DNA of 48,405 nucleotides from Thiohalospira sp. (GTDB lineage Bacteria; Bacteroidota; Bacteroidia; Bacteroidales; UBA12077): the NCBI GenBank assembly GCA_046538755.1, contig JBKHIH010000018.1:1-48405 (forward strand). Direction: 5' to 3'. The notes beneath the pieces are model-generated. The model worked only from the letters and a program-made list of their open reading frames with translations. It did not search any database and was not told the origin of the DNA. Within the stretch, counting starts at the first letter, position 1. Every line of letters begins with the position of its first letter. The position numbers and the translations under genes are program-made. Of this stretch, positions 7,931-41,497 are shown piece after piece.

Positions 7931-8096
7931 AAAAAAGATGGTGTCTAAAAAGGATTACAAGTGTCATTGCGATCCCGATAACTATCGGGAGAAGCAATCT
8001 ATATTTATTGATTATCAGCAGATTGCTTCACTCTCCCGATATCAATCGGGATCGTTCGCAATGACTTTTTCCTGGCTTTTTAGACACCATCTTTTT
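7931..8096. repeat. Long near-perfect palindromic repeat, probable bidirectional terminator, between convergent pfkA and a GH13 gene
   Basis: Terminal inverted repeat (AAAAAAGATGGTGTCTAAAAAG / CTTTTTAGACACCATCTTTTTT). Its ~35-bp arms (GTCATTGCGATCCCGATAACTATCGGGAGAAG and its near-perfect reverse complement) share the core with the element at 5023-5209. Confidence 0.75.
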
Positions 8097-8108
8097 TGTT
8101 GTATTTCG

Positions 8109-27104: not shown

Positions 27105-27908
27105 ATGAATATACTCAAAAAACAAATAGCGCCTTTATCAGATAAGGCATGGAAAGAGATTACTGATCAGTCATCAGAAATATTTAGTATTTACCTGACA
27201 GCCAGAAGTTTTGTTGATTTAAATGGGCCAAATGGATTGGAATATGGAGGAGTTTCTACAGGTAGATTAGTACAAACAAACAAGGAAAACAAAGAGAATG
27301 TAAATTATGGTTTAAGGGAAATAGTTCCGCTTGTAGAAATTCGTAAACCTTTCGAATTAAATATTTGGGAAATGGATAATGTTGACAGAGGTGCATTGGA
27401 TGTAGATTTGGAACCTGTTGTTAAAGCTGCTAAACAGGTAGCTCTTTTTGAAGAAGATTTAATTTATAAAGGATTTAAAGACGGACAGGTTCAGGGCCTT
27501 GAAAAAAGCTCTATACACCCAAAAGTTACTTTGCCAAACGATCCTACGAAGTTGTTGAAAGTTATTGGTGAACAAGTTACTGTTTTTGAGAAACATGGTG
27601 TTAAAGGCCCATTTACCTTAGTTGTTAATGATAAAAAATGGCAGGATTTAGCCAGTCTGGAAAAGGGTTACCCGATTGTTAAACAATTAGAAGAGGTAAT
27701 GAATATTAAAGTAGTAATTAATTATGGAAATTATAACTCATTTTTTGTTTCAGAACGAGGCGGTGATTTTGAACTGTCCATTGGACAGGACATTTCTATA
27801 GGTTATGATAGCCATGATACAGAAAAAGTAAAGCTTTACTTTACCGAATCTTTTACCTTTAGAGTACTCGGGCCCGAAGCAGTAATCGTACTGGAAAGCC
27901 CAAAATAA
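27105..27908 (+). CDS. Family-1 encapsulin nanocompartment shell protein (linocin M18-like, HK97 fold)
   Basis: Strong end-to-end resemblance to Thermotoga-type encapsulin: LKKQIAPLSDKAWKEITDQSSEIF ... SERGGDFELSIGQDISIGYDSHD ... LYFTESFTFRVLGPEA. Length 267 aa. Confidence 0.85.
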   Translation: MNILKKQIAPLSDKAWKEITDQSSEIFSIYLTARSFVDLNGPNGLEYGGVSTGRLVQTNKENKENVNYGLREIVPLVEIRKPFELNIWEMDNVDRGALDVDLEPVVKAAKQVALFEEDLIYKGFKDGQVQGLEKSSIHPKVTLPNDPTKLLKVIGEQVTVFEKHGVKGPFTLVVNDKKWQDLASLEKGYPIVKQLEEVMNIKVVINYGNYNSFFVSERGGDFELSIGQDISIGYDSHDTEKVKLYFTESFTFRVLGPEAVIVLESPK

Positions 27909-28077
27909 AAAATAACTTGTTAGAAGGATATTGCATGAAGGTTCGACGGAAAGATTTGTGTGAGGCTTAAGCGGGAGACACCGGCAACAAAAAAGATTAT
28001 TAAAATTTGAATTTGTAAATCGCAGAACTAAGCGCTAGCGTTCTCATGACAGAAGGAAATAAAAACAATTGTTTAAC
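27904..28077 (+). repeat. Copy A of a ~140-170-bp conserved intergenic element. It begins at the encapsulin stop codon and carries a 34-bp insertion relative to copy B.
   Basis: About 92% identical to the reverse complement of 41153-41291. The shared core includes GCTTAAGCGGGAGACACCGGCAACAAAAAAGATTATT. Confidence 0.8.
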
Positions 28078-28112
28078 TAAAATATATTCTCGTGAAGATT
28101 CTTACAATAACT

Positions 28113-28597
28113 ATGAACCCTGTTATTGATAAAACAACAATAACTGAGTTGGTTATACCACATAATTTGTATTAGATATATCAGGATAACCTTTGAAGAT
28201 GGCCCTGGATGAAGGCATTTCTATGATAAAAACTAAATTTAAAGGAACTGTATTTTTTGCTGGATAAAGATAAAAACCATTATGGACATTGAAGAAGCAG
28301 CTCATAAGCTTGTTGAGAATGATGCCTGTACAATGCTTATTATATCTCTGGGTACAAAAGGAGTTATGTTAACAAGCAGGAGGTATTAATATTGAATATT
28401 TTGTGCCTCCGATAATACCAGTTAAATTATCTGTTAGAGCTGAAGATTCAATGATAGCAGGAATTTTTAATGGATTTATAAAAGCTTATTGGAGTTCCCA
28501 GACAATAAAATATGGTTTTGCTGCAGGTATATCCGCAAAAATTTCTGAAAGATGTAGGTTTTACACTAAAGAAGTAACGGATAAAATTTATAATTAG
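28113..28597 (+). pseudogene. Degraded duplicate of the downstream pfkB-family kinase gene
   Basis: Fragments in three different frames match the intact paralog at 28700-29629: MNPVIDKTTITE (N-terminus), AHKLVENDACTMLIISLGTKGVMLT (middle) and PPIIPVKLSVRAEDSMIAGIFNGFIKAYW (C-terminus). Stops and frameshifts interrupt them. Confidence 0.75.
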
Positions 28598-28699
28598 GTA
28601 AAAACTTATAAGGATAAGGAATCGAATTGCTATTGAAATCCTTTATATTAAGTTTATTGGTTACTTTTTTATGGTTTGTTTATTAAAAGATTTTATTTA

Positions 28700-29629
28700 A
28701 TGAAAGTTTTAACATTAACAATGAATCCGGTTTTAGACAGAAATACAAGTACAAAAATGGTTATGCCGGATAAAAAAGTACGATGCACCAGGCCAGAATT
28801 GAAACCCGGAGGTGGGGGAATTAATGTTTCCAGAGCTATTCAAAAATTAGGATACGAGTCTTCAGCATGTGCTTTGGCGGGTGGAACAAACCGTGGAAAA
28901 ATAGAAGATTTACTTGCAAAACATAATATTAAAACACACATAATAGATTCAGGAACCGATTGCAGGGAAAATTTATTTGTTTTTGATGAAACTACAGGCC
29001 AGATGTACAGGTTTATAATGCCCGGAGATCATGTAATTGCCGACGAAGAAAAAATATTACAACAAATTAAGGATATTGCAATAAATTACAATTATGTAGT
29101 TGCCAGTGGTAGTCTGCTTCCGGGAATATCGACTGAATTTTATGCAAAGTTGGCTAAATTTTTTAAAGAAAATGATATTAAATTCATTTTGGATACATCA
29201 GGCCCGGCGCTTAAAAATGCTATTCAAGAGGGTGTATACCTGATTAAGCCCAATTTAAGAGAACTTGCCAGTTTGGTAGGAAAGGATAAGTTAACAGGAA
29301 TAGACCAGGAAAAAGCTGCAAATGAAATTTTAGAAAAGGGGCAGGCTAATGTTATTGTATTATCGCTTGGAGCCAAAGGTGCAATGTTGGCCCAAATTGG
29401 ACATATAATTGAATACATTACTCCTCCCACAATGCCAATAGTTAGTCCTGTGGGAGCCGGCGACTCAATGGTAGCCGGAATTATTACCGGGTTTATTAAA
29501 GGTTTTTGGCCAACAGAAGCAATTCGATATGGAGTAGCAGCAGGTACAGCCGCGGCCATGCAACCTGGTTCGGAACTTTGTACTAAAGAAGATACCGACA
29601 GGATATGGAAATGGCTAAAGCCTGATTAA
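28700..29629 (+). CDS. PfkB-family sugar-phosphate kinase (Pfk-2 / 1-phosphofructokinase / tagatose-6-P kinase subfamily)
   Basis: Motifs GGGGINVSRA and VGAGDSMVAGI, the FruK/LacC/Pfk-2-type anion hole. The start was chosen at the internal Met (MKVLTLTMNPV); the longest ORF begins at 28676. Confidence 0.75.
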   Translation: MKVLTLTMNPVLDRNTSTKMVMPDKKVRCTRPELKPGGGGINVSRAIQKLGYESSACALAGGTNRGKIEDLLAKHNIKTHIIDSGTDCRENLFVFDETTGQMYRFIMPGDHVIADEEKILQQIKDIAINYNYVVASGSLLPGISTEFYAKLAKFFKENDIKFILDTSGPALKNAIQEGVYLIKPNLRELASLVGKDKLTGIDQEKAANEILEKGQANVIVLSLGAKGAMLAQIGHIIEYITPPTMPIVSPVGAGDSMVAGIITGFIKGFWPTEAIRYGVAAGTAAAMQPGSELCTKEDTDRIWKWLKPD

Positions 29630-29754
29630 TATCAAGCTATAGTTCATAAAATAGATTATAATCAGTTAAATTAAAAGAGGGTTATTATGTTTCAATTTAT
29701 AGAACTTAGTAAAAGCAAAATAGCATGATTTTGAATCTCTAAAATAAAATAACA

Positions 29755-30246
29755 ATGGTAATTATAGTTTTTGGTTTGCCAGGAACCGGGAAAACATACT
29801 TTTCAGAGCATTTATCGGAAAGCATTGGAGCTGTTCATCTGAATACTGACAAGCTCAGAATTGAATATGATAAAACAGGAGAATATGATGAAGAAACAAA
29901 AAATTTCATTTACAATCAACTAAAAAATGAAATGGTGAAAAATATAGCAAATTCTAATGATGTTATTGTGGATGGAACATTTCATCGGAAAGAAAATCGA
30001 AAAGCATTTGAAGTTGAAATAAGCAGGCAGGGAGTAAATGCTTTTTTTATTGAAGTAAAGGCTAAGGAAGAAACCATTAAACAAAGGCTGAAAAATAACA
30101 GGAAATATAGTGAAGCTGGTTATGAGGTTTATTTAAAAATAAAACAGAATTTTGATGCTTATGAAAAAGATCATTTAACGCTATGGTCTGACAGTCAAGA
30201 TGTAAAAGATATGATTAAAAAAGCCAAACAATATATTTATGAATGA
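29755..30246 (+). CDS. Small P-loop kinase (AAA_33 / gluconokinase-like)
   Basis: Walker A at the N-terminus (FGLPGTGKTY) and a ~160-aa nucleotide/sugar-kinase-like fold. The stop overlaps the start of the next gene (ATGAATGA). Confidence 0.6.
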   Translation: MVIIVFGLPGTGKTYFSEHLSESIGAVHLNTDKLRIEYDKTGEYDEETKNFIYNQLKNEMVKNIANSNDVIVDGTFHRKENRKAFEVEISRQGVNAFFIEVKAKEETIKQRLKNNRKYSEAGYEVYLKIKQNFDAYEKDHLTLWSDSQDVKDMIKKAKQYIYE

Positions 30247-31240
30247 GAAACAAATACATAAACTAATTGATAACAAAACTCTTCCGGATTCAAATGACAA
30301 TATTGAATTAAAGGAAACCCATATCTCATGGGTTATTCTCACCAATAATTTTGCGTATAAAGTGAAAAAACCCGTAACATTCTCTTTTCTGGATTTTTCC
30401 ACCCTTGATAAACGTGAATATTACTGTTGGAGAGAAATAGAGTTGAATAAACGGCTTGCTGAAGACATGTATCTGGATGTGATACCTATTACTGAAAAAA
30501 TGGTATCAACCAAAAATAGCAATAATGAAATAATCGACTATGCCGTTAAAATGAAACGCATGGATAATGAGAAAGAAATGAGCCGCCTTCTCTCCCGGAA
30601 CGAGGTTAGATCAAAAGATATTGAAAATATTGCTGCTGTTATATCTGAATTTCATAATAAAACCCAACAGGTAAAAAATGTATTTAACACTACACGGTTT
30701 CAGAAACAATACAAAAAATTGCAAGAAGAGCTTGATTATGTTAACGAATTTATTGGCTCCAAATGGGGCGAAAAGATTAAAGCATGTGTTGAAAAATCCA
30801 ATACTTATTTAAATAATAACCGGGAATTATTAAATGAAAGAGTAATTTCCGGATTTCAAAAAGATTGCCATGGAGATTTAACATCATATAACATCTTTTT
30901 ATACGATCCGCCTGTTGTTTTTGATTGTATCGAATTCAATAATGAGTTCAGGCAAATTGATGTATTTAATGAAATAGCTTTTTTATGTGTGGATCTTGAT
31001 TTTTTTGGTAAAAAAGAATTTAGCCAACTTTTCTTTGATAAATATTCTGAACTTATGAATTATAAAAACAGCGATGAGGAAATCAGCCTCTTTAATTTTT
31101 ATAAAAGTTACAGAGCTAACATTAGAGCTAAAGTTACCATATTAAACCAAAAACAACATCAGAATGATGATAAAGCTAACAATGATATTAAACAGTTTAT
31201 TGATTTAATGACTGAATATTTGTCCATTATCAAAACGTAA
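30239..31240 (+). CDS. APH/choline-kinase-fold (protein-kinase-like) phosphotransferase, possible sugar kinase (maltokinase-like fold)
   Basis: Catalytic-loop-like motif (CHGDLTSYNIFLYD), DFG-like segment (FDCIEFNNEF) and Brenner-type N-lobe. Translationally coupled to the upstream P-loop kinase. Confidence 0.55.
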   Translation: MNEKQIHKLIDNKTLPDSNDNIELKETHISWVILTNNFAYKVKKPVTFSFLDFSTLDKREYYCWREIELNKRLAEDMYLDVIPITEKMVSTKNSNNEIIDYAVKMKRMDNEKEMSRLLSRNEVRSKDIENIAAVISEFHNKTQQVKNVFNTTRFQKQYKKLQEELDYVNEFIGSKWGEKIKACVEKSNTYLNNNRELLNERVISGFQKDCHGDLTSYNIFLYDPPVVFDCIEFNNEFRQIDVFNEIAFLCVDLDFFGKKEFSQLFFDKYSELMNYKNSDEEISLFNFYKSYRANIRAKVTILNQKQHQNDDKANNDIKQFIDLMTEYLSIIKT

Positions 31241-31409
31241 AAGTTAATGTTATGAGGGCAACCATTTTTAACGTTAAGAATTCTTAAATATCTTACATAT
31301 ACTATTCAATATTTTAAAATTTTACTTGTTCAGGTTAATTATAATCGCATTATAATTTTGGTTTGGGATTAGCATATATAGTAGAAAATAAATGATATGA
31401 AAAAGAAGT

Positions 31410-32954
31410 ATGCAAAATAATAATTACATAGGTTTAAAAGCTGTTATTCTCGATATGGATGGAGTAATAACACAAACAGCCAAAGTACATAAAAAAGCAT
31501 GGAAAAAAATGTTTGATGCATTTTTAGAAGGAGAATCCAAAGATTTTGAACCTTTTACCAATGCTGATTATTTAAAATATGTAGATGGCAAACCCAGATA
31601 TAAAGGAGTTCAAAGTTTTCTGCAATCGAAGAAAATAGATTTACCTTACGGAGATCCGGATGACTCTGAAAAAGAAAAAACTGTTTGTGGTTTAGGAAAC
31701 AGAAAAAACAAGATATTCCTTCAGTTAATTGAAACAAACGGGGTGGATGTGTATGAAGATTCTGTAAGTATGATCAAGCAATGGATTGACGCTGGATTGA
31801 AAACAGCCGTTATATCTTCTAGCAAAAATTGCAAACAAATTCTACAAACAGCAAATATCCTTAATTTATTCGATGTTTTGATTGATGGTGTGGTTTCCGC
31901 CGAAAGAAACCTGGAAGGGAAACCCGAACCTGATATATTCTTTGAGGCTGCGAAAGATATTGGTGTTAATGCAAGTGAATGCGTAGTTTTCGAAGATGCT
32001 ATTTCGGGAGTGCAGGCCGGTAGCAAAGGAAATTTTGCTTATGTAGTGGGCGTTAACAGGGATGATAATAAAATTGCTTTGTTAAACAATGGTGCTGACG
32101 ATGTTATAAACAGTTTTAATGAGATTCATTTAATGGGCAATCAAGAGCTAAAATATTATTTTAATAATCCCTTAACTAATATTTTTTCAGAACCCAGGGA
32201 GTTTGAAAAAGAAATGAAAAATAAGATGCCGGTACTTTTTCTCGATTATGACGGAACGCTTACTCCTATCGTAAAGCATCCTGAAGATGCTGTTTTATCT
32301 GATGATATGAAAAAAGCGATCAAAAATTGTGCATCTAAGATTTTTGTGGCTGTTGTCAGTGGAAGAGATATGGACGATGTGAAAGATTTGGTTGGCGTTG
32401 ATGAATTATATTATGCCGGAAGCCATGGGTATAGAATTTCCGGACCCGATGGATTATATCACGAACACAAAAAAACGAAAGAAATATTACCTAAGCTGGA
32501 CAAGATTGAAAAGAAACTGAATAAAAACCTATCGGATATAGAAGGAGTTAAAATAGAGAGGAAAAGATACGCCATCGCTGTACATTATAGAAATGTGGCC
32601 GAAAAAGATGTGACAAATCTTAAAAATAAAGTTGAAAGTTTAATGAACAAATCGGATGGATTAAAGATAGGAGGAGGTAAAAAAATAGTTGAAATAAAAC
32701 CTGATATAGATTGGCACAAAGGGAAAGCCATCTCCTGGATACTTAACACGTTGGAATTAAAAGAAAAAAAGGAAATCTTTCCAATTTATATAGGAGACGA
32801 TATTACCGACGAAGATGCATTTAAGGAAATTGAAAATAATGGAGCGGGCGTTCTGGTAGGTTTTCACGATGATGTTGAAAATACCAGGGCGAGGTTTAGC
32901 CTGAAGAATGTATATCAGGTTAAACTATTTTTAGAAATGCTGGTACAATTTTAA
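31410..32954 (+). CDS. Bifunctional HAD fusion: beta-phosphoglucomutase-like N-domain plus trehalose-6-phosphate phosphatase (OtsB-like) C-domain
   Basis: N-domain: ILDMDGVITQTAKVHKKAWKKMF, SSSKNC, GKPEPDIF, FEDAISGVQAG (beta-PGM family). C-domain: LFLDYDGTLTPIV, VAVVSGRD, GKA, YIGDDITDEDAF (T6PP family). Confidence 0.75.
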   Translation: MQNNNYIGLKAVILDMDGVITQTAKVHKKAWKKMFDAFLEGESKDFEPFTNADYLKYVDGKPRYKGVQSFLQSKKIDLPYGDPDDSEKEKTVCGLGNRKNKIFLQLIETNGVDVYEDSVSMIKQWIDAGLKTAVISSSKNCKQILQTANILNLFDVLIDGVVSAERNLEGKPEPDIFFEAAKDIGVNASECVVFEDAISGVQAGSKGNFAYVVGVNRDDNKIALLNNGADDVINSFNEIHLMGNQELKYYFNNPLTNIFSEPREFEKEMKNKMPVLFLDYDGTLTPIVKHPEDAVLSDDMKKAIKNCASKIFVAVVSGRDMDDVKDLVGVDELYYAGSHGYRISGPDGLYHEHKKTKEILPKLDKIEKKLNKNLSDIEGVKIERKRYAIAVHYRNVAEKDVTNLKNKVESLMNKSDGLKIGGGKKIVEIKPDIDWHKGKAISWILNTLELKEKKEIFPIYIGDDITDEDAFKEIENNGAGVLVGFHDDVENTRARFSLKNVYQVKLFLEMLVQF

Positions 32955-32977
32955 ACTAAAAAAATATTCGATTAATT

Positions 32978-35368
32978 ATGAGTAACTGGATTTTACAATA
33001 TAAAGATTGGAACAAAGAAGAACATCCCCTAAGAGAGGCATTATGTACTCTGGGTAATGGATATTTTGCTACCCGTGGTGCTATAGAAGAATTAAAAGCC
33101 AATGATTTTAATTATCCCGGAACATATTTGGCGGGTGGTTATAACAGGGCAAAATCAAAAATTAATGGTAAAGAAATAGTTAATGAAGATCTGGTAAATA
33201 TTCCTAACTGGTTATTTCTGACATTTAAAATAAAAAACGGAAAGTGGCTTAATCTTGATGATGCTGAAATACTCGAATATCTGGTTAACCTGAATCTTAA
33301 AGAAGGTTTACTGGAAAGAAAAATTAAATTCCGTGATAATAACAATCACGAAACCACTTTAATAAGCAAAAGAATTGTTAGTATGCACGATCATCATGTA
33401 ATGGGCATTGAGTGGACAATGATACCTGAAAACTGGGAAGGTGAGATAACAGTCCGTTCAGCATTAGATGGAAGTGTTAAAAACAACGGTGTAGAGCGGT
33501 ACAATGATTTAAATAATGAACATCTCGATATTTTAGATAACGGAAAATTTAATGATAATAAGATTTTTCTATTAAGTCAGACCAAACAATCGAAACTGTT
33601 AATTGCACAAACATCACGATTAAGTATTTATCAGGAAAAAGATAAGATAAATACTAAAATAGAAGTGAATAAAGATGAGGAGATGGTGTGGCATGATACA
33701 AAATTTAACTGTTTAAAATTGCAACCTGTAAGGATAGAAAAAATAGCTGTCTTATTTACCTCAAGAGACTATGCAATTAGCGATCCGCTTGACGAAGCTC
33801 AACAAAAAATTAGTAAAATTGATAATTTTCATGAAATTTATTTAAATCATAAAATGGTTTGGGAACAACTATGGAACCATAGTAATTTCGAATTAGAAAC
33901 AGAAAACCATAGTTTATTATTTTTACGCCTGCATATATTTCATCTTTACCAAACCATATCGCAAAACAGTATAGATTATGATATTGGTATTCCTTCAAGG
34001 GGTTGGCATGGTGAGGCTTACCGGGGACATGTTTTTTGGGATGAATTATATATTTTGCCGTTTCTTAACCTGCATATGCCACATTTAGCACGTGCAATGC
34101 TAATGTACCGTTACCGCCGACTGCCCCGGGCACGTTATGCAGCTGCAGAAAATGGCTGTCGAGGTGCAATGTTTCCCTGGCAAAGTGGTAGTAACGGACG
34201 CGAAGAAAGCCAGAAAATTCATTTAAATCCTAAATCAGGCCGGTGGATTCCAGATTATTCAAATATTCAACGTCATATTAATGCAGCAATACCTTATAAT
34301 GTTTGGCTCTATTACCAGTCAACCAATGATATGGATTTTTTAGCAGGTTATGGTGCTGAAATTATTTTTAATACTGCCTTGTTTTGGTTAAGTATTGCAG
34401 AATATAATCCTAAAAGAAACCGGTATGAGATCAGTGGCGTTATGGGGCCGGATGAGTATCATACACATTATCCCGATTCAGATTTTCCGGGATTGAATAA
34501 TAATGCTTATACCAATTTTATGGCTGTTTGGGTAATCAGATGTGCCCTTGAGTTATTTAAAATATTAGATGAAAAAATAATAAATGAACTTACCCAAAAG
34601 GTCGGATTTACAAACAAGGATGTGGAGAAATGGGAATCGCTCATAAAAAAAATGTATATCCCGTTTAACGATAAAGGGATTATCATGCAATTCGATGGTT
34701 TTGATAAATTGAAAAATCTCGATTGGGAAAAGTATAAAAAGAAATATGGTAATACGCTTCGCCTCGATCGTATCCTTGAAAAGGAGAACGATTCGCCGAA
34801 TAATTATAAAGTATGTAAGCAGGCAGATGTTTTAATGCTTTTTTACTTATTTTCTGCCGATGAGTTAACTAGGATTTTTAATGATTTAGATTATGATTTT
34901 GACCCAAAAACCATACCTGATAATATTGAATACTACCAAAAGATTACTTCACATGGATCAACCTTAAGCCGTGTTATTTTTTCATGGGTTTATGTGCGTT
35001 CAAATAGAGAATTATCGTGGAGCAATTTTAGAGAAGCTTTATTGAGCGATTTTAATGATGTTCAGGGAGGCACTACACCTGAAGGTATACATCTTGGTGC
35101 TATGGCCGGAACCATTGATATTATGCAGCGCTGTTATACCGGACTTGAAATACGGGATGATATTTTATGGTTAAATCCATGTTTGCCTGAAAAACTTAAT
35201 CAATTGAAAATGCACATAAGGTATCGTAGTCATTGGATTAAATTAAGAATTACGCAGAAAAAATTGTATTTGCAATTTGAAAAAGGTTGGGCAAATCCAA
35301 TTACGATTAGCGTAAATGGACAACAAAAAGAACTTGGCTTTAACGACTCTGCAGTGTTTGATTTATAA
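32978..35368 (+). CDS. GH65 disaccharide phosphorylase (trehalose/T6P/kojibiose/maltose phosphorylase family), specificity unknown
   Basis: GH65 N-terminal (CTLGNGYFATRGAIEE), catalytic-domain (GWHGEAYRGHVFWDE, MGPDEY) and C-terminal beta-sandwich regions. Length 796 aa. Confidence 0.8.
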   Translation: MSNWILQYKDWNKEEHPLREALCTLGNGYFATRGAIEELKANDFNYPGTYLAGGYNRAKSKINGKEIVNEDLVNIPNWLFLTFKIKNGKWLNLDDAEILEYLVNLNLKEGLLERKIKFRDNNNHETTLISKRIVSMHDHHVMGIEWTMIPENWEGEITVRSALDGSVKNNGVERYNDLNNEHLDILDNGKFNDNKIFLLSQTKQSKLLIAQTSRLSIYQEKDKINTKIEVNKDEEMVWHDTKFNCLKLQPVRIEKIAVLFTSRDYAISDPLDEAQQKISKIDNFHEIYLNHKMVWEQLWNHSNFELETENHSLLFLRLHIFHLYQTISQNSIDYDIGIPSRGWHGEAYRGHVFWDELYILPFLNLHMPHLARAMLMYRYRRLPRARYAAAENGCRGAMFPWQSGSNGREESQKIHLNPKSGRWIPDYSNIQRHINAAIPYNVWLYYQSTNDMDFLAGYGAEIIFNTALFWLSIAEYNPKRNRYEISGVMGPDEYHTHYPDSDFPGLNNNAYTNFMAVWVIRCALELFKILDEKIINELTQKVGFTNKDVEKWESLIKKMYIPFNDKGIIMQFDGFDKLKNLDWEKYKKKYGNTLRLDRILEKENDSPNNYKVCKQADVLMLFYLFSADELTRIFNDLDYDFDPKTIPDNIEYYQKITSHGSTLSRVIFSWVYVRSNRELSWSNFREALLSDFNDVQGGTTPEGIHLGAMAGTIDIMQRCYTGLEIRDDILWLNPCLPEKLNQLKMHIRYRSHWIKLRITQKKLYLQFEKGWANPITISVNGQQKELGFNDSAVFDL

Positions 35369-35381
35369 TATAATTAGTTGT

Positions 35382-36182
35382 TTAACAGTTTTTACTTACA
35401 CTGAGGTAATGTTTGGAATAGTTAATCATATGCTTTTCTTCACAATGATTGCTTATAAAACTAAACCACTTTTTTTTAATGGATGGAGCTAAATTTTTAT
35501 ACAACTGCATATTTTCTCCAAATATTCCTTCAATCCCAACTAAGTGAAGGGGTTTTAGTCCGGCATCTGTTATGATCGGATTTATTTCTTCGGGAAAAGA
35601 GAAGTAAGCATTGGTAAACCATTCGGTGCCTTCTACAAAGTTTTCGTCTGTGCCTGTCTCCCAAAGACTAAAAACTCCTTGTTTTTCTTGTATTCCTTCC
35701 GGATTCTTTTTTAATCCATAAAGCATTGCTGCCGATCTCGACATAAAAGCACTGTAGATATACCCATTTTTCTTTACATTTTTTTTCGCCATTTCAAGTA
35801 ACTTAAGCCGGTTTTTCTTCTCGGTAAGATGATATAATGGGCCTAAAATAAGAATAGCATCCCAGTTTTCTTTTTCCCATAATGTAGACTCCAAGGCATT
35901 TGAAACCGAAATATGAATCACATTTGGATGATCCTTAATTTTTTGCCGGGTTAACTTTATATTGTTTTCCGACAAATCGTTCAATCCTAATACATATCCT
36001 TTTTTAATTAATATTTCGGCATAATTGCCTGTTCCACAAGCTATATCAAGTATTTTGGCTCCCGGTTTCACATACTTTTCAATGTATTTTAGGGTAATTG
36101 GTATTTCAAATTCATTCTCATCAAGCCTTTTATCTTCAAAATAGGCGTGTGTGTTATAATATTCTTTTACTTTATTCATCAT
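35382..36182 (-). CDS. Class I SAM-dependent methyltransferase
   Basis: Motif I (ILDIACGTGNYAE) and a post-I acidic residue context (LNDLSE). Confidence 0.7.
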   Translation of the reverse strand: MMNKVKEYYNTHAYFEDKRLDENEFEIPITLKYIEKYVKPGAKILDIACGTGNYAEILIKKGYVLGLNDLSENNIKLTRQKIKDHPNVIHISVSNALESTLWEKENWDAILILGPLYHLTEKKNRLKLLEMAKKNVKKNGYIYSAFMSRSAAMLYGLKKNPEGIQEKQGVFSLWETGTDENFVEGTEWFTNAYFSFPEEINPIITDAGLKPLHLVGIEGIFGENMQLYKNLAPSIKKKWFSFISNHCEEKHMINYSKHYLSVSKNC

Positions 36183-36469
36183 TTACTTTGCTTACATACA
36201 TTCTTACCTGACCTAAAAATGTGCCAACAGCTTGCTTTTGATTTTAGAATAGTGTTTATAATATAATACTGAACAATTACATAGGAATGTGTAATTGATG
36301 TTTTATTATTTATATTGAGGACACTTTTCACAAAAAGTGTAGATTTTATCCACACAAAAGACCAGATTGTTTGTGTTTAATTTAATCAGCAGTTTATGGA
36401 GTATTTGGTTAATATGCAGGATAGTAAAAGAGCAAACAAGATAATGATAAATCTTGGTACTCAACTTGA

Positions 36470-36709
36470 AGTAATGATAATGAGAAAAAAGGTAAATATA
36501 TCTATAAAACAACCGAAAAGCTTTCTATTCGTAGTGTTATTAAAGATGAAGTTGTTTGTTTTAATTTTGAAAATATAAGTAATACGGAAATTTTAATTAC
36601 AGGCGAATTAAATATAAGCCGGTTCGATTATAATGTAGATTATGATTCGGCAGGAATGGGCAAAGAAGCGAAAGTAAAAATTGAAGTAAAAGCTCAAATT
36701 AAAGAATAA
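36470..36709 (+). pseudogene. Possible C-terminal remnant of a YceI-like protein
   Basis: The open frame encodes ...ILITGELNISRFDYNVDYDSAGMGKEAKVKIEVKAQIKE, which resembles the YceI C-terminus. It is far too short for a full domain and has no plausible start. Confidence 0.3.
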
Positions 36710-36725
36710 ATAGTAATAAGAGATA

Positions 36726-38786
36726 ATGGGACATAAAAAGCATAATTCTAACCACGATTATTCAGATAAAGATGCTCATAATCATGATTCACACGATCAC
36801 GATGCAAACGGAAACGAGAATCACGATCATACAGAGCATCATAAAATGATGATTAAAGATTTCCGGAAAAGGTTCTGGATATCATTGATAATTACCATGC
36901 CTGTTCTGGTTATGTCGCCTATGATACAGAATGTATTAGGTTACGAAATTACCTTCGATTTTGCTGAATATGTTTTATTCGGATTATCTACCGCAGTTTT
37001 CTTTTATGGGGGCTGGCCATTTCTAACCGGACTGATTGATGAAATAAAAAAGAAACAACCCGGCATGATGACGCTTATTGCTGTGGCGATAACTGTTGCC
37101 TGGGGATACAGTTCGGCTACCACATTTGGAGTTGAAGGAAGTACTTTTTTTTGGGAGCTGGCAACACTGATCGATATAATGTTGTTGGGACACTGGATAG
37201 AAATGAAATCTGTAGTAAGTGCATCCGGATCATTGCAAAAACTTGTAGAATTAATGCCAACAGATGCAAGGATAATAAAAGATGGTGATACCAAAAAAGT
37301 AAAAATAGGCGAACTTAAAAAAGATGACCTTGTTTTAATTAAACCCGGCGAAAAAATTCCGGTTGATGGTATAATTTACGATGGCGAAAGCAGCATTAAC
37401 GAATCCATGGTTACCGGTGAATCCAAACCGGTTACAAAAACAAAGGATGATAAGGTAATTGGCGGCACCATTAACGGAAATAACACGCTAAAAGTGAAAG
37501 TGCAGCAAGTAGGCGAAGAAGCATATCTGAATAAGATCGTTACAATGGTGCGCGAAGCACAAAGCAGGAAATCAAAAACACAACATTTAGCCGATCGAAT
37601 TGCTTTTTGGTTAACGTTTATTGCATTAACCATAGGTTTTGGAACACTCACCACATGGTTAATTGTGGGTAAACCATTTGTGTTTGCTTTGGAGCGGATG
37701 GCCAGTGTAATGGTTATTACATGTCCGCATGCGTTGGGTTTAGCCGTTCCGCTGGTAGTGGCTATTTCTACTTCTATCTCTGCGCAGCATGGATTACTTA
37801 TCCGTAACCGTACCGCTTTCGAAAATTCACGAAAAATTACTGTATTTCTGTTTGATAAAACAGGAACACTAACTAAGGGAAACTTCGGTGTAACAAGGTA
37901 CGGGGCGCTGAACGATAACTATGATGATAAAGATATTTTACATTTGGCCGGAACAATTGAAGCGCATTCGGAACATCCTCTGGCAAACGGAATTATAGAC
38001 AAGGTAAAGAATGAGAATATAGAACTTGGCGAAGTAAAAAATTTTAATGCTATAAAGGGAAAGGGTGTTGAAGCCAAAGTGGATGGAAAAGATATAAAAG
38101 TAGTGAGCCCGGGATATTTGAAAGATAATGATATGGATATCCCAGAGGATATTGAAGAAGATCAGAAAGAAACCCTGGTATTTGTACTGGAAGATCAAAA
38201 ATTAGTTGGATTTGTGGCTATGGCCGATGAAATAAGAGAAGAATCATATGATGCCATTAAAACGCTTAAAGAAAATAATCTTAAGGTTTATATGATGACT
38301 GGAGATAATGAGAAGGTAGCCAAAAGTGTAAGCGAAGAACTTGGTTTGGATGGCTATTTTTCTGAAATTCTTCCCGATCAAAAAATGGAGAAAATAAAAG
38401 AGTTTAAAGATAAAAGCGAATTTGTTGCCATGACGGGCGATGGTATAAATGATGCACCTGCATTGGCTGAAGCCGATGTGGGTATTGCTGTTGGCTCAGG
38501 AACAGATGTAGCCGCTGAGACTGCTGATATTATTCTGGTAAATAGTAATCCTAAAGATATTTCCGGATTAATACTTTTTGGTAAAGAAACTTACAAAAAA
38601 ATGATTCAGAATTTTATTTGGGCAACAGGGTATAATGTTGTTGCCATTCCATTGGCAGCTGGTGTGTTGTTTAGTGCCGGAATATTAATTAACCCGGCAC
38701 TGGGAGCTATTCTGATGAGTATAAGTACTGTAATTGTTGCCCTAAACGCACAACTTTTAAAACGTAAATTAATTATTAATCATTAA
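36726..38786 (+). CDS. copB: CopB-type (P1B) copper-translocating P-type ATPase with a His-rich N-terminus
   Basis: His-rich N-terminal tail (HNSNHDYSDKDAHNHDSHDHD...). TM CPH motif (ITCPHALG). DKTGTLT phosphorylation site. Also HP, GDGINDAP and MTGD. Confidence 0.85.
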   Translation: MGHKKHNSNHDYSDKDAHNHDSHDHDANGNENHDHTEHHKMMIKDFRKRFWISLIITMPVLVMSPMIQNVLGYEITFDFAEYVLFGLSTAVFFYGGWPFLTGLIDEIKKKQPGMMTLIAVAITVAWGYSSATTFGVEGSTFFWELATLIDIMLLGHWIEMKSVVSASGSLQKLVELMPTDARIIKDGDTKKVKIGELKKDDLVLIKPGEKIPVDGIIYDGESSINESMVTGESKPVTKTKDDKVIGGTINGNNTLKVKVQQVGEEAYLNKIVTMVREAQSRKSKTQHLADRIAFWLTFIALTIGFGTLTTWLIVGKPFVFALERMASVMVITCPHALGLAVPLVVAISTSISAQHGLLIRNRTAFENSRKITVFLFDKTGTLTKGNFGVTRYGALNDNYDDKDILHLAGTIEAHSEHPLANGIIDKVKNENIELGEVKNFNAIKGKGVEAKVDGKDIKVVSPGYLKDNDMDIPEDIEEDQKETLVFVLEDQKLVGFVAMADEIREESYDAIKTLKENNLKVYMMTGDNEKVAKSVSEELGLDGYFSEILPDQKMEKIKEFKDKSEFVAMTGDGINDAPALAEADVGIAVGSGTDVAAETADIILVNSNPKDISGLILFGKETYKKMIQNFIWATGYNVVAIPLAAGVLFSAGILINPALGAILMSISTVIVALNAQLLKRKLIINH

Positions 38787-38806
38787 ATCATTAAATATTA
38801 CATATT

Positions 38807-39052
38807 ATGGAAATTACAATTGTAGCAACAAGATCATGCAACTTCAGGCCTATTTTAGAACAGGAATTAAAAGATGTTGGCCTCGAATATAAAGTGTTAT
38901 TCTACGAAGATCATCCTGAAATAATTGAAAAGTATAACATCAAAACTTCACCTATTTTAATATGCGATGGAGAACTGGTTTCTGAAGGAATGCCTGAACA
39001 TGCCAAAATTCTGGAGTTATGTGAACGGTTTAAAACAAAAGGAAGTAATTAG
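38807..39052 (+). CDS. Small thioredoxin-fold protein (Thioredoxin_3/glutaredoxin-like) with no canonical CxxC
   Basis: 81 aa, with a beta-alpha-beta pattern and a PILICDGELV segment typical of small thioredoxin-fold proteins. It lies 20 bp downstream of copB. Confidence 0.4.
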   Translation: MEITIVATRSCNFRPILEQELKDVGLEYKVLFYEDHPEIIEKYNIKTSPILICDGELVSEGMPEHAKILELCERFKTKGSN

Positions 39053-39091
39053 GCTGTAAGAAAATTTTAACAAATTAAATATTAATGAATT

Positions 39092-39865
39092 ATGGGATCA
39101 TTAATTAGTCTTGTCATTATTTTGGTTTTGTCAGTGCTAATTACAAAGATAGCCTCAGAATCTCTTATTCATACGGGGTTATCAAAAGAAATGGCAAGTT
39201 TTCAGGCTCGTTCTGCTTTTACGGGTGTGGGTTTTACTACAAGCGAATCAGAGAGTATTGCTAATCATCCTGTTCGTAGAAAAATTATCATGGCGCTTAT
39301 GTTAATTGGTAACATAGGAATTATTTCAGCACTGGCTTCATTAATGCTCACATTTGTTAATATTAGTGATAATAAAACCGCAAATATTATACGAGTTTCC
39401 ATTATAGCCGGGAGTTTAATTAGTTTATGGTTATTATCAAAAAGTAAGTGGCTAGAGCAGCTATTAGCCAAAATGATAAAAATAGCACTTAAAAAGTTTA
39501 CAAATCTGAATATTAAAGATTATGTAGAAATTTTGAATCTTAAAAATGAGTATGAAATTTCAGTAATTAATGTTAATTCTGATGACTGGATGGCCAATAA
39601 AAGGATAAAAAATATAAACTTGAGAAAAGAAGGTGTCAATCTGATTGGTATACAAAGGGAGGATGGTACTTACATCGGGACTCCATATGGTGATACCAAA
39701 ATTACCGAAGATGACCAGCTTATTTTGTATGGAAGAAAGAAAAATCTTAAAAACCTTGAAAAACGTAAGCAAGATGCTTCCGGTGATCGCGACCACCAGG
39801 AGGCTATGAAAGAACAGGACGAGGAAAAGAAAAAACAAAAAGAAAAAGACACGAAGTCAAAATAA
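39092..39865 (+). CDS. Membrane protein with a pore-loop-like segment and a C-terminal TrkA-C (RCK_C) domain, plus a highly charged tail
   Basis: Two or three N-terminal TM helices. A TGVGF segment resembles a channel pore loop. The TrkA-C pattern is ...GVNLIGIQREDGTYIGTPYGDTKITEDDQLILYG. The C-terminus is Lys/Glu/Asp-rich. Confidence 0.55.
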   Translation: MGSLISLVIILVLSVLITKIASESLIHTGLSKEMASFQARSAFTGVGFTTSESESIANHPVRRKIIMALMLIGNIGIISALASLMLTFVNISDNKTANIIRVSIIAGSLISLWLLSKSKWLEQLLAKMIKIALKKFTNLNIKDYVEILNLKNEYEISVINVNSDDWMANKRIKNINLRKEGVNLIGIQREDGTYIGTPYGDTKITEDDQLILYGRKKNLKNLEKRKQDASGDRDHQEAMKEQDEEKKKQKEKDTKSK

Positions 39866-39866
39866 T

Positions 39867-40553
39867 TTACAGATAATATTTATTTTTGGTTTCCAGATTT
39901 TTGTTTAGTTCATAAATTAAGGATTTGCCGGTTGGTATTTCTACCGAGCTAATCTCATCGTCAGACACTTTATCTAAATGCTTTATCAGGGCTCTTAAAC
40001 TATTGCCATGGGCCGAAATAATAATCCGTTTGCCGTTCTTTATTTCCGGAATTATATTGTTCTTCCAATAAGGAACAAACCTTTTGTATGTATCTTCAAG
40101 GCTTTCTCCTAATGGTAGTTCATCGTCATTTAAACTGCTATACATTCTTTGATTACCCGGAAAACGCTTGTCATTCTTTTCTAAAAGGGGCGGTTTGGTC
40201 GAATATCCTCGTCTCCACTCATGAACCTGATCTTTCCCGTGTTTATCGGCCATTTCTTTTTTGTTTAATCCCTGCAACGCACCATAATGCCTTTCGTTAA
40301 GCCTCCAGCTTTTTTCCCACGGAATCCACAGCTCATTAAGAATATCGGCTACCAGCCAAAGTGTATGTAAGGCTCTTCTCAGATAAGAGGTGAAGGCCAG
40401 ATCAAATTTAAAATCGTTTTCTTTAAGCTTTTGGCCGGCTTGTATAGCTTCCTGTATTCCGTTTTTTGAGAGAGGAACATCAGTCCAGCCTGTAAAGAGA
40501 TTCTCTTTGTTCCACTTACTTTCTCCGTGTCTTATCAATGTTATTTTGTACAT
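39867..40553 (-). CDS. gpmA: 2,3-bisphosphoglycerate-dependent phosphoglycerate mutase
   Basis: LIRHGESKWNKENLFTGW and RRALHT motifs, with a length typical of GpmA. Confidence 0.85.
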   Translation of the reverse strand: MYKITLIRHGESKWNKENLFTGWTDVPLSKNGIQEAIQAGQKLKENDFKFDLAFTSYLRRALHTLWLVADILNELWIPWEKSWRLNERHYGALQGLNKKEMADKHGKDQVHEWRRGYSTKPPLLEKNDKRFPGNQRMYSSLNDDELPLGESLEDTYKRFVPYWKNNIIPEIKNGKRIIISAHGNSLRALIKHLDKVSDDEISSVEIPTGKSLIYELNKNLETKNKYYL

Positions 40554-40567
40554 AATTTTGAGTTTTT

Positions 40568-40975
40568 TTATCGATTGTATGAATGTTTTTTTTGAATACT
40601 TCCGCTTTTGCGATAAATGATGAGATTTGTACTGTTTTTCTTCGCTATCTCCTTTGCTTTTTCAACAGCTTCAGCTTTGGCATCAAAAATAAAACTTGAC
40701 TTGTCGGCTTCTTCATATTTTATAGCCCACTGATCGTCTTTAGGCAGTACATAGAGGTCTTTGCCATGTTCCTTTCGATCTGTTTTTGTTTTCGAAATAT
40801 TTTTGCCCCGGTTGTTTGCCCAGTCTCTTGCCCTGCTAATAGCTGTTGGTATGGCAAAGCTTTCATTTAGCTTATCTTCGTAAAGTAGGGCATTTAAAAT
40901 TTCAATAGCTTTTTCTTTTACATCCTCATCAAGATTTTTCATTGTATTCGGGTAATTATCTTTTGTGTAAGGCAT
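40568..40975 (-). CDS. DUF2188-like small stress-associated protein
   Basis: C-terminal DQWAIKYEEADKSSFIFDAKAEAVEKAKEIAKKNSTNLIIYRKSGSIQKK matches the DUF2188 pattern. Confidence 0.5.
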   Translation of the reverse strand: MPYTKDNYPNTMKNLDEDVKEKAIEILNALLYEDKLNESFAIPTAISRARDWANNRGKNISKTKTDRKEHGKDLYVLPKDDQWAIKYEEADKSSFIFDAKAEAVEKAKEIAKKNSTNLIIYRKSGSIQKKHSYNR

Positions 40976-41152
40976 AATAATTTTATTTTTAAAGTGATTG
41001 TTTCCAATATTTTATAAACGATTGTAAAAAAATCATTCCAAATTAAAATAAAAACAAAATGAGTGTGATAATCAGATATGTATATTTTGATAAGAATTGA
41101 ATTGTGGAATTATTACCCGGTTTTGCAATTATATTTCATTGGAATATATTTT

Positions 41153-41291
41153 TGTTAAACATATGTTTTCTGCGATTTACTAATTCAAATTACAATAATC
41201 TTTTTTGTTGCCGGTGTCTCCCGCTTAAGCTTTCCACAAATCCCTCCGGCGAACCTTCATGCAATAACCTTCTAACAAGTTATTTTTTATT
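41153..41291 (-). repeat. Copy B of the conserved intergenic element, in inverted orientation relative to copy A
   Basis: Its reverse complement aligns to 27904-28077 at ~92% identity with one 34-bp indel. It has the same polarity relative to the downstream minus-strand gene (40975..40568) that copy A has to the downstream pfkB genes. Confidence 0.8.
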
Positions 41292-41497
41292 GCCTTCGGC
41301 GAGCTCGTAAACTCGGTTCATGTCCTTTTGAGTTTGTGCCGGTTTAATTTTTTATCCTTAAGCATGAAGGTTTCATAAGAATTTGATAATGCAGTTAGCA
41401 ATTTGTCTGAACAAAATATAAAAGATGGTGTCTGTAATAATGTAAACCTTTCAATAAACCAATCAAATAATTTCAGTATCATTTAAAAAATAATAAG

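Follow-up and report, generated by a model that had tools for sequence, protein, structure and literature searches.

A candidate non-autonomous insertion element with ATGAA junctions underlies an inverted repeat pair in a Bacteroidales contig

Introduction

Small non-autonomous interspersed repeats that join host transcripts include the Correia elements of Neisseria, the enterobacterial ERIC sequences, and the pneumococcal BOX and RUP elements, and repeats of this type can alter the expression of the adjacent gene. Among these, Correia elements number tens to hundreds of copies, end in terminal inverted repeats, and are associated with a TA duplication. The invertons of Bacteroides are homologous upstream elements with inverted repeats that precede unrelated genes, often genes for surface proteins; exported proteins and lipoproteins are typical cargo of Bacteroidales invertons. 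Rickettsia palindromic elements form in-frame insertions in genes.

BrickBuilt, a MITE of Porphyromonas gingivalis, carries a 23-nt minisatellite and ends in small inverted repeats; its 19 copies per genome always lie 49-591 nt away from coding sequences, and it may modulate the transcription of neighbouring genes (PMC4596501). The insertion sequences IS608 and ISDra2 insert 3' of TTAC and TTGAT, respectively, and this sequence stays in the left flank (PMC5934647). IStrons splice themselves out (PMC4227781).

This study analyzed an inverted repeat pair, copies A and B, in a stretch of DNA of 48,405 nt (the window). The reading that we favor, at a probability of roughly 0.55, is that both repeats belong to a small, non-coding, non-autonomous insertion element with ATGAA as its target and a leader as its contribution to the gene, copy B being full length and copy A 5'-truncated.

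Results

The original prediction of an inverted repeat at 27904 and 41291 was confirmed. A repeat search of the window matched 27904-28027 with the reverse complement of 41168-41291 over 124 nt at 92% identity, 13,140 nt apart, and revealed a second inverted pair (28062-28096 and 41135-41169; 35 nt, 83%). In the pairwise alignment, the two form a single block that is split by a 35-nt insertion in copy A, reaches 28096 and 41135, and contains ten mismatches in all directions. The quoted core comprised 37 nt and was identical in both copies; a 20-mer taken from it occurred twice in the window versus 0.00 times expected from shuffles. The predicted extents required correction: both copies are real, but their limits are those given in Table 1, and copy B is approximately 85 nt longer at its 5' side. 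A partial third match (GCATGAAGGTTTCA) proposed at approximately 41361 is not a third copy but the reverse complement of the first 15 bases of copy B (ATGAAACCTTCATGC, 41376-41362), and the partner of its 11-nt core is GCATGAAGGTT (41262-41252), within copy B itself.

Table 1. Coordinates of the two element copies, their internal features, and the adjoining genes in the window
Feature	Position	Strand	Remarks
Encapsulin gene	27105..27908	+	left flank of copy A
Copy A	27904..28096	+	5'-truncated element; ends CTCGTGAA
37-nt core GCTTAAGCGGGAGACACCGGCAACAAAAAAGATTATT	27965..28001	+	identical in A and B; partner in B 41194-41230, minus strand; longest A/B identical run
35-nt insertion AACTAAGCGCTAGCGTTCTCATGACAGAAGGAAAT	28026..28060	+	copy A only; also present in same-species MAG contig L011
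12-nt perfect palindrome AAACAATTGTTT	28063..28074	.	about 20 nt before terminal RTG; in B (41157-41168) AAACATATGTTT, another perfect palindrome
GTG, element/gene junction	28092..28094	+	stands where pfkB1 of relatives starts with ATG
pfkB1 pseudogene	28092..28699	+	residues 1-24, then about 162-313; frame changes
DUF2188 gene	40568..40975	-	start 160 nt past the RTGAA end of B
Copy B, full length	41135..41376	-	element proper 240 nt, 41376-41137; starts ATGAAACCTTCATGC, ends ATATATTCCAATGAA
Internal inverted repeat, 3' arm GCATGAAGGTT	41252..41262	-	equivalent arm in A: 27933-27943, plus strand
27-nt insert AACCGAGTTTACGAGCTCGCCGAAGGC	41292..41318	-	common only to B and the L003 copy; directly after internal CATG(AA)
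Internal inverted repeat, 5' arm AACCTTCATGC	41362..41372	-	the third partial match of the original prediction
Flavodoxin/FAD/NAD diflavin reductase gene	41498..43123	+	divergent from B; 121 nt from the 5' end of B

Copy A starts, as predicted, at the encapsulin stop codon (TAA, 27906-27908). It covers positions 43-214 of the family profile in nhmmer and approximately positions 59-214 of the aligned copies, and it is closer to copies in other genomes (93-94% identity) than to copy B (90%). The A site is empty in four relatives (encapsulin identity of 89, 86, 81, and 75%), in which the stop codon is followed by 4-14 nt and then by the ATGAA(G/A)... of pfkB; at the junction, the window reads ...CTCG followed by TGAAGATTCTTACAATAAC, versus ATGAAAATTCTTACAATAAC in the relative L037. 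The pfkB1 pseudogene lacks residues 25-161, and copy A thus heads a dead gene; the downstream pfkB2 is intact, with its real ATG at 28700. The B site is empty in L032, where the homologous site is GTGGA rather than ATGAA: when the flanks of copy B were re-joined with a single ATGAA, they aligned collinearly across the junction (CTTATGAAATATAATTG versus CTTGTGGAATTTGATTG). The gap between copy B and the DUF2188 gene holds DNA homologous to the intergenic (promoter-side) region of the relatives. These empty-site comparisons, which concern the A and B sites only, establish at the level of alignment that both window copies are insertions relative to the relatives.

An exact 20-mer scan gave hits in the genomes of three GTDB species and at three metagenome loci, and the copies come from MAGs and metagenomes of uncultured Bacteroidales. 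Judging by the databases, the element appears to be restricted to a narrow group of these bacteria. The six loci (A, B, and four others) are non-orthologous and 79-96% identical, with flanks that are otherwise unrelated. Recurrence beyond the window, a question raised with the original prediction, was found at four other unrelated loci, and the copies at six loci with unrelated flanks mark the element as an independent unit, not the tail of a duplicated gene. The detected copies number one or two per genome, and six known loci are unusually few for a MITE-like element; an nhmmer search of approximately 180 kb from related genomes, partly redundant, yielded no copy.

The boundaries of the element are sharp. 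Full copies measure 214 nt, or 240-242 nt with the 27-nt insert, and run from ATGAAACCTTCATGC to ATATATTCnnRTGAA. Homology among the copies begins exactly at ATGAA in all five full copies (preceding bases T, T, G, G, and G) and stops at RTGAA in all six. Every full copy thus has A plus TGAA at the left and R plus TGAA at the right, and the two empty sites have a single copy of the site. Because the site sequence is always identical, a target duplication looks the same as an element-borne repeat, and the two terminal ATGAA sequences could belong to the element itself, being neither target nor duplication. Four further ATGAA or complementary sequences lie inside the element. A TTCAT complementary to ATGAA is situated 3 nt in from the left end, and the 27-nt indel and the truncation point of copy A both fall at an internal CATGAA, between CATG and AA.

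Within these boundaries, an 11-bp inverted repeat enclosing 72-99 nt is invariant in the five full copies, and its left arm is absent from copy A. Long blocks of 32 and 37 nt are very highly conserved across the copies; selection for a regulatory function could be behind this conservation. The repeat search detected no terminal inverted repeats, and visual comparison of the 30 nt at the start with the reverse complement of the 30 nt at the end showed only TTAAAC in common. When the terminal 70-76 nt of either strand were folded as DNA, no stable subterminal hairpins formed (-1.6 to -1.7 kcal/mol, z +0.3 to +1.4); the sole structure was a 5-bp ATGAA/TTCAT hairpin. Neither a transposase or recombinase gene nor an autonomous partner was seen in the window or beside the other copies. 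Of the features of classical MITEs, the element shows multiple copies at non-orthologous sites and, for A and B, empty sites in relatives, but not terminal inverted repeats like those of a parent insertion sequence. Of those of PATEs, the non-autonomous derivatives of IS200/IS605 elements, it shows a fixed orientation 3' of a pentanucleotide kept at the left (ATGAA, five of five full copies), but not the subterminal palindromes.

At four of the six loci, a downstream gene of the same polarity uses the terminal RTG as its start codon, and the 3' end of the element must consequently belong to the 5' leader of those genes. They encode a secreted rhodanese (locus L005), a PQQ-type beta-propeller lipoprotein (L003), a cyclophilin lipoprotein (L007), and pfkB1 (copy A); the signal peptides of the L005 and L007 products are complete only when translation starts at the GTG of the element. 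All junctions lie at ATGAA, and the positions of the terminal RTG match genuine gene starts. Locus L001 has no gene downstream of its copy. Copy B points toward the DUF2188 gene with the predicted polarity, but a gap of 160 nt separates the two. The downstream genes (pfkB kinase, rhodanese, PQQ-type beta-propeller lipoprotein, cyclophilin, and DUF2188) have no function in common.

Discussion

These findings are consistent with an element that would enter DNA at the pentanucleotide ATGAA, in one fixed orientation and through a putative targeting mechanism, with ATGAA either duplicated or kept at the left and mimicked at the right. ATGAA is also the Met-Lys or Met-Asn start of many genes, and the element would therefore often come to lie exactly on a start codon. 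The last element base (A or G) and the TGAA of the target would rebuild an ATG or GTG, and the A/T-rich 3' end would become a new translation-initiation region, so that the gene could still be translated. The element would be transcribed as a leader, from the native upstream promoter or an undetected internal promoter, and the enzyme, which is not encoded in the window, would act in trans. Insertion at a non-palindromic ATGAA would explain the polarity shared by the copies better than the original prediction did, and the inverted arrangement 13 kb apart would follow from two target sites that face opposite ways.

A possible but clearly less probable alternative is a portable cassette of promoter, operator palindrome, and structured leader, kept for the common expression of unrelated genes and spread by illegitimate or homologous recombination instead of a dedicated transposition reaction. 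It overlaps with the insertion-element reading and differs in what maintains the element and in its mode of spread. The 3' end, which reaches the start codon at four of six loci and is necessarily leader plus initiation region, is compatible with such a cassette, as are the low copy number and the long invariant blocks, including GCTTAAGC and AAACAATTGTTT, the latter swapped for the perfect palindrome AAACATATGTTT in copy B. All full copies also have the 11-bp long-range stem and a GCCGG/CCGGC stem, three one-sided changes are compatible with pairing, and the Bacteroidota element BrickBuilt has promoter activity (PMC4596501). However, the TAnnTTTG box (the canonical Bacteroidetes -7) is not conserved on the sense strand; the sequence that comes closest, [G/A]AAATTTG at position 157, has been lost from B, L003, and L007, and neither window copy contains a sigma-70-like site. 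The lack of a common downstream function, the geneless L001, the 160-nt distance at copy B, the pseudogene behind copy A, zero compensatory changes, and folding energies no better than those of shuffles also argue against it. The shared promoter or 5' leader of the original prediction was supported as to the leader position at four of six loci, one of them the dead pfkB1 behind copy A, but not as to a conserved -7 box, nor at L001 or B.

That the repeats are independent small RNA genes or riboswitch-like sensors placed ahead of genes is hardly credible. A GC-rich core conserved within an AT-rich genome and a position upstream of genes point toward it, but no Rfam family matched at the gathering threshold or at E up to 10, folding z-scores on either strand ranged from -1.1 to +0.7, as for shuffled sequence, and neither window copy holds a terminator-like site. 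The downstream genes are functionally unrelated, and approximately 90% identity across unpaired A-rich linkers suggests recent copying, not an old aptamer. Covariation was absent: RNAalifold gave 24 pairs with no compensatory and three one-sided compatible changes, from five full sequences whose low diversity affords low statistical power. A discrete small RNA, as originally considered, thus found no support.

Two forms of DNA inversion are both very unlikely. In one, recombination between the inverted copies would invert the 13-kb segment with the kinase, GH65, copB, and gpmA genes. The match of 124 nt at 92%, which includes 37 identical nt in a row, would be sufficient in length for rare RecA-dependent exchange, and short-read Logan contigs end at both repeats, so that those assemblies do not fix the orientation; however, the 8% divergence would depress homologous exchange. 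On a repeat-free contig of 210,940 bp from a relative, the encapsulin and reductase genes share a strand, at 134,949 (+) and 163,467 (+), and the flanking gene runs share the order and strands of the window, which indicates that the orientation in the window is ancestral. The independent MAG GCA_964497745.1 has the same joins, encapsulin-A-pfkB1 and DUF2188-B-reductase, identical on all four junction sides, and the predicted inversion is accordingly without support. In the other form, AACCTTCATGC and GCATGAAGGTT would flank a 72-99-bp segment whose inversion by a site-specific recombinase switches the downstream gene on or off, as at the invertible promoters of Bacteroides. This phase-variation switch would account for the invariance of the 11-bp repeat, for three downstream genes encoding exported proteins or lipoproteins, and for reverse-strand near-consensus -7 boxes in the enclosed segment, but these boxes are not conserved in L003 and L007, and no TAnnTTTG box within the segment is conserved in either orientation. 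The segment is very short, has the same orientation in five independent full copies and in the duplicate assemblies L002, L008, and L034, and has no recombinase gene nearby; in copy A, the left arm is wholly missing. A diversity-generating retroelement repeat pair was also considered and rejected, the A/B mismatches not being adenine-specific and the window containing no reverse transcriptase.

Read as a non-autonomous insertion element, the repeat resembles Correia, ERIC, BOX, and RUP elements in being short, non-coding, intergenic, located at non-orthologous sites, and present or absent between relatives, and in its internal inverted repeat, which could pair into a long stem as RNA or DNA. 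Unlike Correia elements, it has no terminal inverted repeats, is flanked by ATGAA and RTGAA, and is known from only six loci, four of them on start codons. With BrickBuilt (PMC4596501), it shares a Bacteroidota-specific, modular, non-coding organization and a limited host range, whereas it lacks the ends, minisatellite, copy number, and spacing of that element and abuts start codons.

Similar to the IS200/IS605 family and PATEs, the element has no terminal inverted repeats and would insert in an orientation-specific manner immediately 3' of a fixed 4-5-nt sequence, ATGAA preceding the variable-free part of all five full copies; the TTCAT near the left end is a further point of resemblance. In contrast to these systems, it has no, or only very weak, subterminal imperfect palindromes, the feature that defines them; the target-like RTGAA recurs at the right end, and no tnpA or tnpB was seen near any copy. 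Its copies resemble Bacteroides invertons as a homologous upstream family with inverted repeats before unrelated genes, but the enclosed segment is much shorter, and an alternative orientation, an internal promoter consensus, and a recombinase were not found here. The proposed tolerance of insertion in or at a gene, with host gene expression restored by the element, recalls the Rickettsia palindromic elements and IStrons; the repair, however, would consist of start-codon regeneration and a new initiation region rather than in-frame translation or splicing.

Results

An inverted-repeat search confirmed the predicted inverted pair, copies A and B of a non-coding element, as the longest inverted repeat of the window (see the table of features). 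Pairwise alignment revealed that the two copies represent a single homologous unit broken by an insertion in A, and a 20-mer from their longest identical run, the core, occurred twice in the window versus 0.00 times expected from shuffles. As had been claimed, copy A starts inside the stop codon of the encapsulin gene, and copy B is oriented towards the DUF2188 gene. The third partial match proposed at ~41361 proved to be the reverse complement of B's own first bases, where an 11-nt arm (AACCTTCATGC) pairs with GCATGAAGGTT of the same element; there is no third copy, and a nhmmer profile detected no further copies or fragments in the window or the other loci examined. The element is an independent unit, longer than first described. 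A gene-tail origin was ruled out: upstream of the element, A and B share no similarity, and the encapsulin genes of relatives end alike without it. A DGR template/variable pair was also rejected, the A/B mismatches not being adenine-specific.

Coordinates of the element copies and neighbouring features in the window
Feature	Position	Strand	Remarks
Phosphofructokinase gene	6815-7915		convergent with alpha-amylase gene
Long hairpin	7931-8097		~167 nt, near-perfect
13-mer AAAGATGGTGTCT	7934-7946, 8082-8094, 41421-41433		first two copies are the hairpin ends
Alpha-amylase gene	8109-10451
Encapsulin gene	27105-27908		product versus Linocin_M18, E = 3e-73
Copy A	27904-28096	plus	element positions ~59-214 only
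Inverted arms	27904-28027 / 41168-41291		124 nt, 92% complementary, spacing 13,140 nt
Core	27965-28001 / 41194-41230		37 nt, same in A and B
Insertion in A	28026-28060		35 nt
Second A/B block	28062-28096 / 41135-41169		35 nt, 83%
pfkB1 remnant	28092-28699		residues 1-24, then ~162-313; 25-161 lost; frame changes
pfkB2	28700-29629		intact
DUF2188 gene	40975..40568	minus
Region of gene loss	40976-41500		L032 6983-9908
Copy B	41376-41137	minus	full length
Paired arms in B	41372-41362 / 41262-41252		11 nt

We scanned one genome per GTDB species for exact matches to AAGCGGGAGACACCGGCAAC and recovered three uncultured Bacteroidales MAGs (L001, L002, and L003) and one chance match. A metagenome scan added a 56-kb contig with the same locus as L002 (L005), a second example of the L001 locus (L006), and a new locus (L007 and L008), besides one chance match. 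Loci L004, L009, and L013-L024 were discarded as chance matches to the search words. Viral-contig scans returned nothing beyond chance 17-mer matches, and BLAST against plasmids and phages gave no match to the element. Including the window, six non-orthologous loci carry the element, and BLAST found nothing else common among them. Full copies measure 214 nt; B and L003, at 240-242 nt, have a 27-nt insert in common. The copies become homologous precisely at ATGAAACCTTCATGC, which follows T, T, G, G, and G in the five full copies, and their homology ends at ATATATTCnnRTGAA, with ATATATTCTCRTGAA as the right terminus. Copy A is closer to those of L005 and L007 (93-94% similarity) than to B (90%), which speaks against one of A and B being a direct duplicate of the other.

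Related assemblies provided additional observations on the copies. Over 841 nt, the window and L011, a contig of a same-species MAG, differ at three positions, all inside A (L011 2272-2469), and two of these three agree with the base found in L001 and L005; the differences could stem from gene conversion among copies or from an assembly that mixed reads of different copies. The same-strain short-read contigs L010 and L012 (Logan SRR29060565) break off within A and begin within B. The far end of a 13,146-bp Logan contig, judged from its extent, falls at ~28068 in A's last module, which is identical to that of the L005 and L007 copies and differs from B's. This contig end hints at further element copies in the SRR29060565 sample.

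Homologues of the encapsulin (89, 86, 81, and 75% identity) were traced to contigs, and all four relatives keep the gene order SOD-EncFtn-encapsulin-pfkB. In these relatives, the pfkB ATG follows the encapsulin stop after a gap of just 4-14 nt, with no element: the relative L037 reads TAA-ataaac-ATGAAAATTCTTACAATAACC, and the window reads TAA-element A-CTCGTGAAGATTCTTACAATAACT. Tandem pfkB genes (pfkB1 and pfkB2, ~50% identical) are present in relatives, among them L037 on its 210,940-bp contig. In the window, the decayed gene is pfkB1, whose start codon element A occupies.

For site B, reductase homologues were found in the element-free relatives L032 (82%) and L035 (72%), in which the reductase gene is divergent from an OsmC-oxidoreductase-NDH2-DUF2188-gpmA operon and an NDH2-DUF2188-gpmA operon, respectively. 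The stretch between reductase and DUF2188 has lost its genes in the window lineage, ~2.9 kb compared with L032; the missing genes are those for OsmC, the FAD/NAD oxidoreductase, and NDH-2. When the flanks of B were re-joined with one ATGAA, they were collinear with the L032 intergenic DNA across the junction, independently of the ~2.9-kb loss. No element copies were present in the related genome regions (~180 kb, partly redundant). Sequence comparison with relatives indicates that both window copies are insertions. The DNA directly before DUF2188, between that gene and B, is homologous to the intergenic (promoter-side) region of the relatives. Because this homologue remains in place, the reading of B as a replacement promoter of DUF2188-gpmA after the deletion was withdrawn.

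The original prediction also held that the inverted copies could mediate inversion of the 13-kb segment between them. On the relative's 210,940-bp contig, encapsulin (134,949, plus) and reductase (163,467, plus) are oriented to each other as they are in the window, and two gene runs retain both order and strands, namely encapsulin, pfkB1, pfkB2, trehalose-phosphatase-like HAD, and GH65, and copB-type ATPase, TrkA-C, gpmA, and DUF2188. The shared orientation and flanking gene runs mark the window arrangement as ancestral. An independent same-species MAG (GCA_964497745.1, 98.5-99.6% identical) has the same junctions, L011 spanning encapsulin-A-pfkB1 and L034 spanning DUF2188-B-reductase. Logan short-read contigs end at the repeats and are uninformative on orientation. 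With an ancestral orientation, the same junctions in a second MAG, and no inverted isomer seen, the inversion is unsupported; rare homologous exchange between A and B, over an identical run of at most 37 nt, may occur.

No evidence for the proposed small RNA emerged from Rfam, folding, or a terminator scan. Rfam at gathering thresholds, run over the full window plus four further loci, returned nothing on the element, and at E values up to 10 nothing overlapped it in either copy. The minimum free energies of the core and of the full element were within ~1 SD of shuffles on both strands. RNAalifold, applied to five full copies with little diversity, kept an invariant 11-bp long-range stem and a GCCGG/CCGGC stem with a G·U-rich extension; three one-sided pairing-compatible changes and 0 compensatory changes were counted, which at this low diversity neither proves nor excludes a structure. 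A structured RNA or riboswitch reading of the element is not supported. Neither terminator-like nor sigma-70-like sites were found inside A or B, and the Bacteroidetes -7 box TAnnTTTG was conserved at no sense-strand position in a weakly calibrated scan (5/30 window genes versus ~2 expected). Non-synonymous changes and a frame shift in L003 led us to reject MKPSCLRIKN and MKVRRRDLWKA, short peptides within the element, as conserved genes. A 68-aa antisense ORF over B, which served as bait for spuriously called ORFs over other copies, had no homologue among 5.8 billion proteins.

We translated each locus from the element's terminal ATG or GTG (RTG).

Products read from the terminal RTG of the element
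Locus	Product	Pfam
L005	146-aa rhodanese, signal peptide	rhodanese confirmed
L003	451-aa PQQ-type beta-propeller, lipoprotein signal (…FLFFSC)	beta-propeller confirmed
L007	193-aa cyclophilin-like lipoprotein (…LLLSC)
Copy A	VKILTITMNPVIDKT…, pfkB kinase N-terminus
Copy B	ORF of 8 codons only
L001	ORF of 17 codons only

The start codon in L005 and L007 is GTG, and the signal peptide is lost if the next in-frame Met is used; translation therefore has to start where element and gene meet, which implies that the A/T-rich 3' end of the element would lie within those mRNAs. The suggestion of a shared 5' leader holds in part: outside the window, the element would act as a leader. The downstream genes have no common function, and at L001 the element is flanked by the 3' end of a convergent peptidase gene on one side and by a divergent dehydrogenase gene on the other. 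At L005, a GC-rich ~190-nt spacer with small hairpins (GGAATCCCTTTAGGGAC…) separates the element from YeeE-like sulphur-transport genes (5950-6138, equivalent to L002 2492-2682); it has no Rfam match and may be an unrelated structured RNA.

Breakpoints lie at ATGAA throughout, all full copies being bounded by A|TGAA on the left and R|TGAA on the right. The two available empty sites contain a single ATGAA at A and GTGGA at B, the latter in a relative with 82% identity in the reductase protein. Inside the element are two more ATGAA and one TTCAT, and an internal CATG|AA is where copy A begins at its 5' end and where the 27-nt indel falls. Because ATGAA occurs 239 times on both strands of the window, it is a common site, often coincident with Met-Lys/Asn starts.

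Other features of the window were also recorded. The ends of the long hairpin are inverted copies of AAAAAAGATGGTGTCTAAAAAGG, and its RNA fold reached -82 kcal/mol (z = -11.6 versus shuffles) with no Rfam match; possible identities are a MITE and a bidirectional terminator. The 13-mer at its ends occurs three times versus 0.07 expected. The third copy, 45 nt from the 5' end of B and upstream of the reductase gene, is partly conserved in L032; it may serve for protein binding or represent a solo end of the hairpin element. The MAG is named 'Thiohalospira sp.' at NCBI, a gammaproteobacterium. Every close relative carries a Bacteroidales label, and a type IX secretion sorting domain occurs in a protein encoded by the window. 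Mis-binning of the contig or mislabelling of the MAG is probable.

Discussion

The simplest reading of the boundaries is orientation-specific insertion at ATGAA. The element would insert there in a fixed orientation, and the first base of the regenerated start codon would come from the element. We consider it somewhat better than an even chance (roughly 55%) that A and B belong to a non-autonomous insertion element, rare and restricted to its lineage, which inserts at ATGAA and restores start codons. The main rival, that the element is kept as a portable regulatory leader, appears rather unlikely as the chief explanation; it is not exclusive of insertion. A bolder extension of the insertion reading, possible though doubtful, is an undescribed class of mobile DNA lacking terminal inverted repeats, which would home to Met-Lys/Asn ATGAA, restore the start codon, and carry its own leader, a movable 5' UTR able to rewire the expression of any gene hit, mobilised by a site-specific enzyme encoded elsewhere. 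Terminal inverted repeats are absent from the element, and neither the window nor the surroundings of the other copies contained a transposase or recombinase gene.

If the insertion model is true, a selfish repeat lands on the commonest start-of-gene sequence and the gene survives, which would explain an identical leader on unrelated genes of one lineage. It would also bear on how start codons and 5' regions are annotated in MAGs of Bacteroidales and help explain short-read assembly breaks at gene starts; should the responsible enzyme be found, a portable expression or targeting module is possible. For the window, the dramatic readings (small RNA, riboswitch, and 13-kb invertible segment) are left without evidence.

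Among known systems, IS200/IS605 elements insert 3' of a fixed short sequence that is kept in the left flank (PMC5934647). The ATGAA targeting of the element resembles this mode of insertion, but the subterminal end hairpins that define IS200/IS605 were not found in it. The element is closest to MITE-like transcribed repeats with IS200/IS605-reminiscent targeting, and it matches the full definition of neither.
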